This document shows positions 6,591 through 9,195 of a stretch of DNA of 9,195 nt, in pieces. The notes under the pieces are model-generated. The model had not been told where the DNA came from. It saw only the letters and a list, made by a program, of their open reading frames with translations, and searched no databases. How positions within the stretch are numbered: the first letter of the stretch is position 1; the number at the start of each line of letters is the position of its first letter. Made by a program: the position numbers and the translations under genes. The stretch spans positions 1-9,195 of IMG/VR virus record IMGVR_UViG_3300010279_000202; one strand, written 5' to 3'. The stretch is from a virus. Taxonomy: Duplodnaviria > Heunggongvirae > Uroviricota > Caudoviricetes.

Positions 6591-7543
6591 TTCGCCTCCT
6601 GCGGCGGTTCTGGTAGCGGCATCCAGTGTGACGGTTTCCACGACGCACCAGGAATTATCCACCCATCATTAGCGTCAGGATGCCCCGGGATGTAAGTCGC
6701 CCATTTCATTCGCCAGTCACCTTTCCTGTCAAACTCCACGGCAACAAGAACGGCTGTTTTGGTATTCGGCATTCGCTCACTACAGCTTATCCAACCATCC
6801 GGAGTTACCGGAACTTGCGGAATGGCTGTCTGCTCTCGAACGTCATTAGGCGCTATAGGTTCTGCTGCCAACTGACTGGCATATTTGTTAATGGTAACGA
6901 TAAGCTCTTGCTCGGCCTCATCCAGACAATCACCGATACCTCGCCTGTCACCGTCAAAATCATCGAAATCGGCACGAATCTTGGCAACCTTCTGGATTGC
7001 AGACAACACCTCACTAGGAATTACCGGATAGTTGGTTGACGTTTCCGCGATTTCCCGAAAATTATTGGTTGACGAATTCTTGTTTTCCCGAAAGTTTCCG
7101 GACTGAAGCATGGCGGCGCGGCAGGCGTTCCATATTTCGGCAGCAATATCGCGCTCGCTATCGGTTAATTTGTACGTGGAAACATAGCCAGAGAGCATTT
7201 CTACGTTTTCCGGAGTTGCTTCTTCCGGCACTACCGGCGCTGGCAAGGCAGCGTGATAGTAGAGTGGCATAGTTTTGTACAGTGGTTCGCCAGGACTTCC
7301 GTCAACCTGATTCCATTCTTCAACCCAGGCATCAACAACCGCTTTGCTGGTTGATACATGTTCTTCTGAATCTACATTTTGTCCTGATATACTGAACATA
7401 ACTGCCTCTGCCTCCAGCGATGCCAGAGCAATTCGTGCCAGTTCTTCCGCTTCTTCTGCTGGCAGTACAACGTTGCTACCCGGTCCGTATGTTTCGCGCC
7501 ACTGCTTGATTGTCAGCAGTCGCTCTTTGGTAATAGTGATCAT
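6587..7543 (-). CDS. Phage protein, 318 aa, with C-terminal DUF551-like region; N-terminal domain paralogous to ORF 8418-8780
   Basis: C-terminus ...DANDGWIIPGASWKPSHWMPLPEPPQEAK resembles the Trp/Pro-rich DUF551 signature as I recall it from enterobacterial prophage proteins. N-terminus (MITITKER..., ELARIALASLEAE, WNACRAAML) parallels the 120-aa ORF downstream in the window. Confidence 0.8.
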   Translation of the reverse strand: MITITKERLLTIKQWRETYGPGSNVVLPAEEAEELARIALASLEAEAVMFSISGQNVDSEEHVSTSKAVVDAWVEEWNQVDGSPGEPLYKTMPLYYHAALPAPVVPEEATPENVEMLSGYVSTYKLTDSERDIAAEIWNACRAAMLQSGNFRENKNSSTNNFREIAETSTNYPVIPSEVLSAIQKVAKIRADFDDFDGDRRGIGDCLDEAEQELIVTINKYASQLAAEPIAPNDVREQTAIPQVPVTPDGWISCSERMPNTKTAVLVAVEFDRKGDWRMKWATYIPGHPDANDGWIIPGASWKPSHWMPLPEPPQEAK

Positions 7544-8055
7544 GCCGCGTTTCCTTCTTTCTTATTAACAATTACACCGTCATATATTTCATTAAGGTGC
7601 CCTCTCAACTCCATGCGCCTTAATGCAGATAACATGTAATCGCATTCAACCTGCTTATTTCCAGTAAATGGCTTATCGTCAGGATTACCCCAACAGCAAT
7701 TACCCTTGGGCCACCCATGTACTTTCCGTACTCTTCCGTTAACAACGTGAAGTAATCCCCAGCCAGGTGGTAAATCCTCAACTGAAATAATTCCCGGCTC
7801 ACTAATAAAGAATCGCCAGTCGCCCATTCCAAGAGATGGATTTTTACGAAAACGCTTTTTTCTATCTGCCAACAAGTCAGCACGAGAACACTTCGCCTCT
7901 ATCAGGCATGATGCTGAATTTCTGAATCCCATAGCATCTGGCTGTTCTCCGGTACTGGTTACAGCTATAAAGCGGTCATGAAAACAAACCTTGAACCCGT
8001 TGCGCTTAAGGAACTTATACGCAATCTGACAGAGTTCGCGGTGTGTTAACGCCAT
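7540..8055 (-). CDS. PD-(D/E)xK-motif nuclease-like protein, 171 aa
   Basis: Track ORF 7540..8127; preferred ATG at 8055 (MALTHRELCQIAYKF...) preceded by AAGGAGAG SD. Contains ...QPDAMGFRNSASCLIEAK..., i.e. P-D, then 14 residues, then E-x-K, the classic restriction-endonuclease-like signature. The motif reading is inference. Confidence 0.7.
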   Translation of the reverse strand: MALTHRELCQIAYKFLKRNGFKVCFHDRFIAVTSTGEQPDAMGFRNSASCLIEAKCSRADLLADRKKRFRKNPSLGMGDWRFFISEPGIISVEDLPPGWGLLHVVNGRVRKVHGWPKGNCCWGNPDDKPFTGNKQVECDYMLSALRRMELRGHLNEIYDGVIVNKKEGNAA

Positions 8056-8056
8056 A

Positions 8057-8245
8057 TCACTCTCCTTTAGTGCGCAAGTGGTTTTTCCAGCGGTTTTGCG
8101 CCGCGCTGGGCTTTTTGCAAAAACCACAATCCATCATCCCGTAATATTTCATCAACCCCATCCGTCGGTTGCTGAGTCTCACCCACTGCCAGACGCCAGG
8201 AGCGTTTCTACGAACTAACAGAATCTTTGCTTTACGGTTTTTCAT
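8057..8245 (-). CDS. Small basic protein, 62 aa
   Basis: ATG at 8245 forms an ATGA overlap with the upstream micro-gene and follows an AGGAGA SD; product MKNRKAKILLVRRNAPGVWQWVRL...CGFCKK... is K/R-rich. Its stop overlaps the SD of the next gene. Confidence 0.45.
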   Translation of the reverse strand: MKNRKAKILLVRRNAPGVWQWVRLSNRRMGLMKYYGMMDCGFCKKPSAAQNRWKNHLRTKGE

Positions 8246-8418
8246 CGCTTTGCTCTCCTGCGTCTCTTTGCTGCTCGTCGTGCCGCTGCAATACCGGTAT
8301 GGCGGCGCTTTGGTGCCGGGATGATGTTGTCAGCCATCAGGACATGTGGCTTTGCAATTAGCGCAGAAGCCCAAAAACGAGTCGGGTACGGTAACAAGCC
8401 GAAAAATGCCACACGCAT
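8242..8418 (-). CDS. Small protein, 58 aa, with arginine-rich tail
   Basis: ATG at 8418 overlaps the upstream stop (TAATG) and follows GGGAGGTGAG SD; product MRVAFFGLLPYPTRFWASALIAKPHVLMADNIIPAPKRRHTGIAAARRAAKRRRRAKR. Below the track's size cutoff. Confidence 0.4.
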   Translation of the reverse strand: MRVAFFGLLPYPTRFWASALIAKPHVLMADNIIPAPKRRHTGIAAARRAAKRRRRAKR

Positions 8419-8780
8419 TACTCACCTCCCTTACCCTGAAGCATGGCAGCGCGGCAGGCGTTCCAGCCATCAACATAATCAAACGTATTGCTATCGTCTG
8501 GATCGATTTCATCCGGCACTACCGGCTCTGGTTGGATAGTGACGTTGGCAAAGGCAGCACGCAAACCGGCCTTAATTTCCTCTACTTCATCAGCGCCTAG
8601 CGATGAATCTGACAATGCGTGATGGAATGCGTAAGCCATGTCGTCGTTTACTGCAACCGGTTCGGCTTCCAGTGATGCCAGCGCAATTCGTGCCAGTTCC
8701 ATTTGTTCGCCACGGGTAAGCCCGTTATCAAGCGGATTTTTAATGAATAATTCGATACGTTCTTTGGTAATAGTGGTCAT
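8418..8780 (-). CDS. Hypothetical protein, 120 aa, paralogous to the N-terminal domain of the 318-aa DUF551-like protein
   Basis: MTTITKERIELFIK...ELARIALASLEAE...WNACRAAMLQGKGGE; start forms an ATGA overlap with the upstream stop. Shares 26-28-bp near-identical DNA patches with 6587-7543. Confidence 0.75.
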   Translation of the reverse strand: MTTITKERIELFIKNPLDNGLTRGEQMELARIALASLEAEPVAVNDDMAYAFHHALSDSSLGADEVEEIKAGLRAAFANVTIQPEPVVPDEIDPDDSNTFDYVDGWNACRAAMLQGKGGE

Positions 8781-8986
8781 TTGTTAATCCTCAAAACTTT
8801 ATGCCCGGGCGCAAAAGCACGTGTTTTGTCTTTACTTATTCGCCACCCGTCTTTACGGGCCTCTTTTGCACAACCAGACCATGACGTACCGATATACTCA
8901 CCGAAGTCTGGCACTGGATATACACCTTCCGTACACTGGCGGCAGTCACAATAGAGATGCATGGTGTAACTTGCAGCGATAGCCAT
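8777..8986 (-). CDS. Small Cys-rich (putative metal-binding) protein, 69 aa
   Basis: Track ORF 8777..9067; preferred ATG at 8986 (MAIAASYTMHLYCDCRQCTEG...SGCAKEARKDGW...) preceded by AAGGAGAG SD. Contains a C-x-C-x2-C cluster plus further Cys/His residues. Confidence 0.6.
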   Translation of the reverse strand: MAIAASYTMHLYCDCRQCTEGVYPVPDFGEYIGTSWSGCAKEARKDGWRISKDKTRAFAPGHKVLRINK

Positions 8987-8987
8987 A

Positions 8988-9195
8988 TCACTCTCCTTTG
9001 ATGCGAATGCCAGGGGCGCGTGGCACATTAACTTCCACGATGCGCACAGTTGGTTTGTACATCTCAATCGCAGTCAGCCAGTCAGCGCCAGTCATGCGCT
9101 TTTCTGCATCGCCATTAGTCCACTTAACCGGTACACCAATAGCCTTCATCGCGATTTCTATTTCCCCGGCAATGGCGCTTTTTCCGCAACCAGTA
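8988..9195 (-). CDS. Hypothetical protein with Walker-A-like motif, C-terminal 69 codons only; N-terminus beyond window
   Basis: Hand translation of the open minus frame gives ...TGCGKSAIAGEIEIAMKAIGVPVKWTNGDAEKRMTGADWLTAIEMYKPTVRIVEVNVPRAPGIRIKGE-stop (TGA 8988-8990). GCGKS resembles a P-loop. Absent from the track because the start is outside the window. Confidence 0.5.
   Translation of the reverse strand, partial: TGCGKSAIAGEIEIAMKAIGVPVKWTNGDAEKRMTGADWLTAIEMYKPTVRIVEVNVPRAPGIRIKGE

Follow-up and report, generated by a model that had tools for sequence, protein, structure and literature searches.

We analyzed a 9,195-nt stretch of DNA (the window) that comprises positions 1 to 9,195 of the IMG/VR record IMGVR_UViG_3300010279_000202, assigned to a virus of the Caudoviricetes. 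A gene on its minus strand encodes a protein of 171 amino acids (aa), very probably a genuine nuclease from the PD-(D/E)xK superfamily, and many temperate phages that infect gut bacteria carry such a gene as a stand-alone accessory. Based on sequence comparisons and a structural model, we assign a probability of roughly 0.7 to the more specific reading that it is a free-standing, probably catalytically competent, metal-dependent PD-(D/E)xK nuclease of a phage-borne sister family of the MmcB-like and Hjc nucleases. A first-pass annotation of the window had described a nuclease-like gene in an operon with a P-loop fragment and several small proteins. Of this interpretation the nuclease fold is supported, and the operon as a functional system is not, given that no neighbor is conserved among the 80 loci compared below.

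Motif conservation and predicted fold

The start ATG of the nuclease gene lies 7 nt after the ribosome-binding site AAAGGAGAG. The motif region of its product reads ...GEQPD(40)AMGF...LIE(53)AK(55)CSRADLLAD, which confirms the reported open reading frame (ORF) and places its signature at PD(40)...E(53)xK(55), with D40 encoded at 7938-7936, E53 at 7899-7897 and K55 at 7893-7891. By itself, such a motif is weak evidence for a nuclease. The pattern D-x6-30-[DE]xK arises in 66% of shuffles of the 171-aa protein, PD-x6-30-[DE]xK in 7% and PD-x10-14-h[DE]xK in 0.5%. Because the loose form is frequent in shuffles, the motif is meaningful only alongside conservation and fold.

Conservation was counted in an alignment of 68 representative relatives with 34-60% identity. 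The catalytic positions are essentially invariant in these distant homologs: D40 is kept in 68/68 relatives, and E53 and K55 are each kept in 67/68. Further conserved positions are an acidic residue at 27 (67/68), E37 (67/68), D60 (68/68), D64 (67/68) and R81 (68/68). The conserved candidate catalytic set comprises D/E27, E37, D40, E53 and K55.

An AlphaFold2 model of the protein was built on 32 homologs (predicted local distance difference test (pLDDT) 85.2, predicted template modeling score (pTM) 0.79). The elements follow in the order helix 5-18, strands 23-26, 41-45 and 48-54, helix 58-65 and strand 80-85, so that the predicted structure has the alpha-beta-beta-beta-alpha-beta core of PD-(D/E)xK nucleases. 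D40 enters strand 2 and E53-x-K55 ends strand 3, as in the superfamily. The restriction-endonuclease-like core anticipated by the first-pass annotation is therefore found in the model. A Foldseek search of predicted viral structures (BFVD) gave 16 matches at E ≤ 0.001, and these include several phage entries named 'MmcB family DNA repair protein' (E 2e-7 to 2e-4).

A fold by itself is no proof of catalysis, and the protein could in principle be an inert DNA-binding or regulatory protein that keeps the nuclease fold, similar to the exo-xis modulators of the lysis-lysogeny decision. Other exo-xis genes are indeed developmental modulators (PMC3824215, PMC7093339). We consider this explanation very unlikely, however, as near-invariant canonical catalytic residues at 34-60% identity are hard to explain without catalysis.

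Relationship to MmcB-like and Hjc nucleases

A broad profile of the family retrieves PDB entry 3dnx (SPO1766) at E 9.7e-6. When the family is aligned to 3dnx using hhalign, the probability is 97.3% (E 2e-11, 35% identity over 83 columns), and the stretch IExKxSRxDFxxDxK, with its ExKxSRxDFxxD helix, is common to both. The part of 3dnx covered by this alignment clearly belongs to PF06319 (MmcB-like/DUF1052; E 9e-35). We conclude that the family is homologous to a bona fide MmcB-like protein. Together, the predicted fold, the invariant D/E/K positions and the 3dnx homology support the first-pass assignment to PD-(D/E)xK nuclease-like proteins.

The 171-aa protein has no match to PF06319 even at E ≤ 1 (gathering threshold 22 bits). 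Weak, sub-threshold PF06319 matches occur in 14/68 relatives (best E 2.9e-4) and weak, sub-threshold matches to Hjc (PF01870) in 25/68 (best E 1.3e-4). Assignment to Hjc, for which a score of 21.1 bits and a close structural match were required, was not supported. Single-sequence searches of the 171-aa protein in Pfam, NCBIfam, PADLOC and PDB sequences gave no match. Because the family shows homology to 3dnx and only sub-threshold Pfam matches, we place it beside PF06319, not inside it, and treat it on the basis of these comparisons as a separate, undescribed sister family of the MmcB-like/AHJR-type nucleases.

The known relatives provide a framework for its function. MmcB is an SOS-induced PD-(D/E)xK endonuclease that Caulobacter needs for tolerance of mitomycin C and cisplatin (PMC9578287), and DUF1052 is a PD-(D/E)xK family related to the archaeal Holliday-junction resolvases (PMC1189080, PMC3424549). 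Hjc is likewise a small PD-(D/E)xK domain with a D...ExK motif. Several differences should be noted. In the comparison with Caulobacter crescentus MmcB and SPO1766, identity to 3dnx is only about 24-35%, and a role in crosslink repair under SOS control has been established for Caulobacter MmcB alone (PMC9578287). A conserved C-terminal segment, KPFxxNKQxExxxMxSALRR, sets the family apart from PF06319/COG5321/DUF1052. The family is carried by temperate phages of Gammaproteobacteria; DUF1052, by contrast, has been described as largely alphaproteobacterial and located on chromosomes (PMC3424549).

The family is large. In PHROGs the 171-aa protein is assigned to phrog_631 and phrog_9263, with a faint link to phrog_5429, a 'DNA repair protein'. 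All 325 close relatives are labeled 'hypothetical' and none has a Pfam domain. With a cutoff of E ≤ 1e-3, an exhaustive profile search retrieved 3,189 clusters (50% identity), of which 2,406 also score E ≤ 1e-10.

Distribution and genomic setting

At ≥95% identity the nuclease gene is present in 931 out of 5,426 complete E. coli genomes (17%), with 1,049 copies located on chromosomes and 250 on plasmids. These include Shiga toxin (Stx) prophages and P1-like plasmids.

The window as a whole matches P1-like E. coli plasmids of ~93-108 kb, with 98-99% identity over 85-88% of its length. The matching plasmids carry the c1 repressor, lpa, terminase, pac, phd/doc, humD and DUF968, and the presence of phd, doc and an S24 peptidase gene in the window confirms a P1-like phage-plasmid backbone. 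The 1.8-kb segment around the nuclease gene is also 99.9% identical to chromosomal lambdoid prophages (the prophage of genome L001 among them). In sequence terms, the window thus appears to be a P1-like phage-plasmid that acquired an accessory block of lambdoid type.

In the prophages, the copy lies between the CI/Cro switch and the integrase, among yfdP-R, Ea22-like, DUF551 and excisionase genes. The order in O157:H7 is exo, orf60a, orf63, orf61, a TraR/DksA-family regulator gene, ea22 and then the nuclease gene, which is the classical exo-xis region. A search of the literature on exo-xis proteins turned up no mention of a nuclease. Distant members have comparable positions. In Microbulbifer the gene is in a prophage early region after cro and replication genes and before YbcO (a nin-like position), in Kushneria it is in a prophage early region after RdgC and before excisionase and integrase, and in Thioalbus it is also within a prophage early region. 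The family is therefore found in early accessory gene strings (exo-xis-like and nin-like) of temperate phages and phage-plasmids.

Inactivated alleles

The O157:H7 allele (2501-3014 of L089) has a 2-nt deletion and a substitution in the I-E53-A-K55 codons, which change CTGATAGAGGCGAAG to CTGAT--TGGCGAAA. The resulting frameshift destroys E53-x-K55 and leaves a 58-aa stub. The 514-nt length of this allele was found in 5 out of 24 full-length matches taken as a spread sample. A cluster of 111-aa fragments has 645 members, compared to 1,363 in the cluster of the intact 171-aa protein.

The RefSeq (PGAP) annotation calls the intact 171-aa gene a 179-bp 'frameshifted' pseudogene (10141-10319 in L001 and 6747-6925 in L002; the call in L089 is at 2501-2677). 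The mislabel likely stems from the reference WP_001356547.1, which is the 58-aa O157:H7 stub. Because of this pseudogene call, the intact gene is unannotated at least in both complete genomes that were examined (L001 and L002).

Several results weigh against a catalytically competent MmcB-like/Hjc-type enzyme of repair or recombination. The 171-aa protein falls below every Pfam and NCBIfam threshold. A Foldseek search against PDB gave nothing at E ≤ 0.001; the top sub-significant entries are mostly nucleases of the same fold, Hjc structures among them. Finally, because the gene is often inactivated, as seen from the O157:H7 frameshift and the large fragment cluster, it is dispensable and possibly costly, a picture suited both to a toxic or host-directed nuclease and to an enzyme of repair or recombination.

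We therefore considered a toxic nuclease directed against the host or a competitor, acting through host DNA degradation, superinfection exclusion or as an abortive-infection-like effector. Recurrent inactivation, at the very residues E53 and K55 in O157:H7 and through truncation in large clusters, is as expected for a costly nuclease. Furthermore, the gene is often carried as an accessory in variable regions, which in temperate phages typically house prophage defense and moron genes. On the other hand, the nuclease has no immunity or antitoxin partner, no sensor domain and no match to the known defense models in PADLOC, intact copies are common in lysogens (the 1,363 member sequences above), and MmcB, the closest characterized relative, is a repair enzyme (PMC9578287). 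Overall, we regard a toxic role as rather unlikely.

Gene arrangement in the window

The minus strand from 9195 to 6587 holds seven tightly coupled genes (Table 1), joined through ATGA or TAATG overlaps or through TGAtATG. In consensus scans, the minus strand showed no promoter-like or terminator-like site within 7540-9195. Judged from sequence, the coupled junctions without an internal promoter or terminator fit co-transcription. No Rfam family or tRNA was matched in the window. The upstream GCGKS gene, the Cys-rich protein and the two coupled basic micro-proteins listed in the first-pass annotation are all present on the same strand; the 120-aa Ea22-like ORF (8780-8418) that also sits within the string had been omitted.

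Table 1 Features of the window, listed from the nuclease gene string to the P1-like backbone
Feature	Position	Strand	Remarks
3' part of gene running past the window edge	8988..9195	minus	last 68 codons of the 210-aa Ead/Ea22-like gene; T-G-C-G-K-S, GCGKS codons 9191-9177
69-aa protein, 4 Cys and 2 His	8777..8986	minus	phrog_926
120-aa Ea22-like N-terminal ORF without C-terminal domain	8418..8780	minus	labeled a partial gene by PGAP
58-aa Arg-rich putative ORF, isoelectric point (pI) 12.0, 11 Arg	8242..8418	minus	phrog_13831; strong ribosome-binding site GGGAGGTGA
62-aa basic protein, pI 11.3	8057..8245	minus	phrog_1380, E 1e-40; directly upstream of the nuclease gene, translationally coupled
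171-aa MmcB-like PD-(D/E)xK nuclease-fold gene	7540..8055	minus	core of the finding
P39-D40...E53-A-K55, predicted catalytic codons	7891..7941	minus	start of strand 2 and end of strand 3
318-aa protein, Ea22-like N-terminus and DUF551	6587..7543	minus	directly downstream of the nuclease gene (ATGA overlap); Pfam DUF551 E 7e-21, residues 250-315
24-nt gene-boundary sequence CGCAyyAAAGGAGAGTGATATGGC	8051..8074; second copy 8982-9005	minus	
phd antitoxin	1525-1298	minus	
doc toxin	1298-918	minus	
S24 peptidase / HumD-like gene	1981-1592	minus	

The full GCGKS gene was read from L001 (8576-9208; 99.9% identical) and encodes a protein of 210 aa. Residues 2-124 match Ead/Ea22 (PF13935, E 7.4e-38, above the Pfam threshold). 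The rest is a ~75-aa C-terminal module with GFTGCGKS (Walker-A-like) and IVEVN, both invariant in 20 homologs. This module is nearly invariant, whereas the N-terminal parts vary freely, and all homologs found for the protein are Ea22-like proteins. Matches to NTPase families (APS_kinase, AAA_16) are below the Pfam threshold, and a weak SRP54 match lies around the P-loop (E 0.017). The AlphaFold2 model of a homolog of the module has a pLDDT of 51.6, too low for a fold search, and the PDB-chain sequence search used to compare the module with the lambda Ea22 C-terminal domain returned no Ea22 entry. Where the first-pass annotation saw a P-loop fragment, the recovered upstream gene has its Walker-A motif in a C-terminal module of an Ea22 protein and does not appear to encode a full-size NTPase. 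At ~75 aa, the module falls well short of the size of a standard P-loop NTPase.

Neighborhoods of nuclease relatives

We collected 80 viral loci encoding nuclease relatives and clustered all flanking ORFs. The P-loop module, the 58-aa gene and the 62-aa gene were found in 0/80 loci, and the Cys-rich 69-aa gene adjoins a nuclease relative in 1/80. No neighbor family occurs in more than 24/80 loci, so that there is no conserved partner; Ea22-like and DUF551-type proteins are the most frequent neighbors, though not constant ones. Only 32 of the 5,426 E. coli genomes share the arrangement of the window exactly. In Stx1 and Stx2 phages the 58/62-aa pair directly follows ea22 and there is no nuclease gene. 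Neither the nuclease nor any of the small proteins matched a PADLOC model, and the Ea22-like protein gave only noise (E > 0.01).

These results bear on the proposal that the nuclease belongs, together with a P-loop NTPase and small proteins, to a multi-gene cassette for defense, anti-defense or recombination. In its favor, translational coupling links the genes, no terminator-like site interrupts them, GFTGCGKS does not vary within its module and some sources call this module an 'ATP-binding protein'. However, the proposed partners do not co-occur with nuclease relatives, the nuclease is present in many more E. coli genomes than the arrangement (931 vs 32), the micro-protein pair exists without it, no defense model is matched and the P-loop module is both small and under the Pfam thresholds of every NTPase family. 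The cassette is thus largely refuted through absent co-occurrence and is highly improbable; the functional unit of nuclease, NTPase, Cys-rich protein and micro-proteins put forward in the first-pass annotation was not borne out. We conclude that the neighbors are unrelated mosaic accessory genes, not partners.

The 24-nt boundary sequence has two exact 18-nt copies, compared to 0 expected by chance (repeat D5). Homology to Stx phages stops at the boundary before the nuclease ATG. The sequence marks the edge of homology to other phages, as would be expected of a recombination linker between mosaic modules, and it may be one. The proteins upstream of both copies end in ...KGE.

Fusions to a TniB-like ATPase, to DUF551 and to a dATP/dGTP pyrophosphohydrolase were considered as functional links and rejected, as each is a single protein and they mirror common neighbors. 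The candidate fusion proteins, each with the nuclease domain and one such partner, are P0136 (428 aa), P0201 (243 aa) and P0217 (236 aa).

Ea22-type modules and micro-proteins

Ea22 proteins are mosaics with a common N-terminus and coiled coil and unrelated, portable C-terminal domains (PMC10834534). As in the Ea22 mosaics of lambda and Stx phages (PF13935; PMC10834534, PMC7093339), three genes of the string code for Ea22-type N-termini, that of the 210-aa protein lying past the window edge. Their C-terminal ends are P-loop-like in the 210-aa protein, absent in the 120-aa ORF and DUF551 in the 318-aa protein, which fits the mosaic pattern. The 120-aa ORF is paralogous to the first ~150 residues of the 318-aa protein, with PHROG matches in common. 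The paralogous N-termini read M-T/I-TITKER...ARIALASLEAE...PVVP..WNACRAAMLQ, and direct repeats D1, D2, D4 and D6 connect 8436-8780 with 7103-7543 at a spacing of ~1.25-1.33 kb. These two N-termini bracket the block of the 58-aa, 62-aa and nuclease genes.

In the Salmonella proteins P0091, P0103 and P0097 (240-252 aa), the nuclease domain follows an extra N-terminus and there is an acidic ELELELE tail. The N-terminus carries the Ead/Ea22 Pfam signature in P0091 and P0103; none is on record for P0097. Because Salmonella proteins place the nuclease domain after an Ea22-type N-terminus, the nuclease may also act as a portable Ea22 C-terminal domain. A further reading is suggested by these fusions and by the active-site frameshift in O157:H7, namely that Ea22-type scaffolds and their neighbors are a swap-in system of small effector domains (the MmcB-like nuclease, the 75-aa Walker-A module and DUF551), in which the nuclease would be a regulated, potentially toxic effector against host or competitor DNA instead of a housekeeping enzyme of repair. 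We consider this unlikely.

The 62-aa gene has ratios of nonsynonymous to synonymous substitution rates (dN/dS) of 0.26 and 0.44 in comparisons with the phages Dewey and D6. The ends of the protein are conserved and the middle is variable. Stx phages and phiV10 carry the gene but not the nuclease, and it is an independent mosaic gene under purifying selection. A weak zf-C2H2_jaz match (E 0.096) hinted at a zinc finger in this protein, a reading that we rejected because the Cys pair is not conserved in Dewey and D6. For the 58-aa putative ORF, dN/dS is about 0.7 with very few changes, and the Stx1 phage has one in-frame 7-codon indel.

Seven ORFs of 83-214 aa elsewhere in the window, at 4173-6262 (minus strand) and 2156-3097 (plus strand), have no Pfam match. 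By position, the plus-strand ORF 2156-2740 appears to match a gene labeled 'DNA-binding protein' in related plasmids. The S24/HumD-like gene, a translesion-synthesis accessory gene, is ~5.5 kb downstream of the MmcB-like nuclease gene.

Proposed function

As a free-standing nuclease of the MmcB-like/Hjc sister family, the 171-aa protein would be expressed with the early genes after infection or SOS induction. By analogy with related families, it would cut according to DNA structure and not sequence, at branched recombination or replication intermediates or at damaged DNA. Neither a methyltransferase nor a specificity partner accompanies the nuclease, which fits recognition of structure or damage. 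The enzyme would aid phage recombination, replication or repair after induction and would confer a dispensable advantage.

Rap and RusA of the lambdoid nin region are small, structure-specific phage nucleases for branched DNA; both are expressed early and are dispensable. We propose a functional analogy to them, and one distant family member is in a nin-like position, although the folds and families of Rap and RusA are unrelated to those of the 171-aa nuclease. RusA and the 171-aa nuclease are not simple alternatives, because the L001 prophage carries both.

The finding adds a new branch, at family level, to nucleases of a known kind and is not a new kind of system. The nuclease family is very common, yet neither Pfam nor NCBIfam has a model for it. 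The link to the MmcB-like nucleases gives it a testable function and has practical value for annotation.

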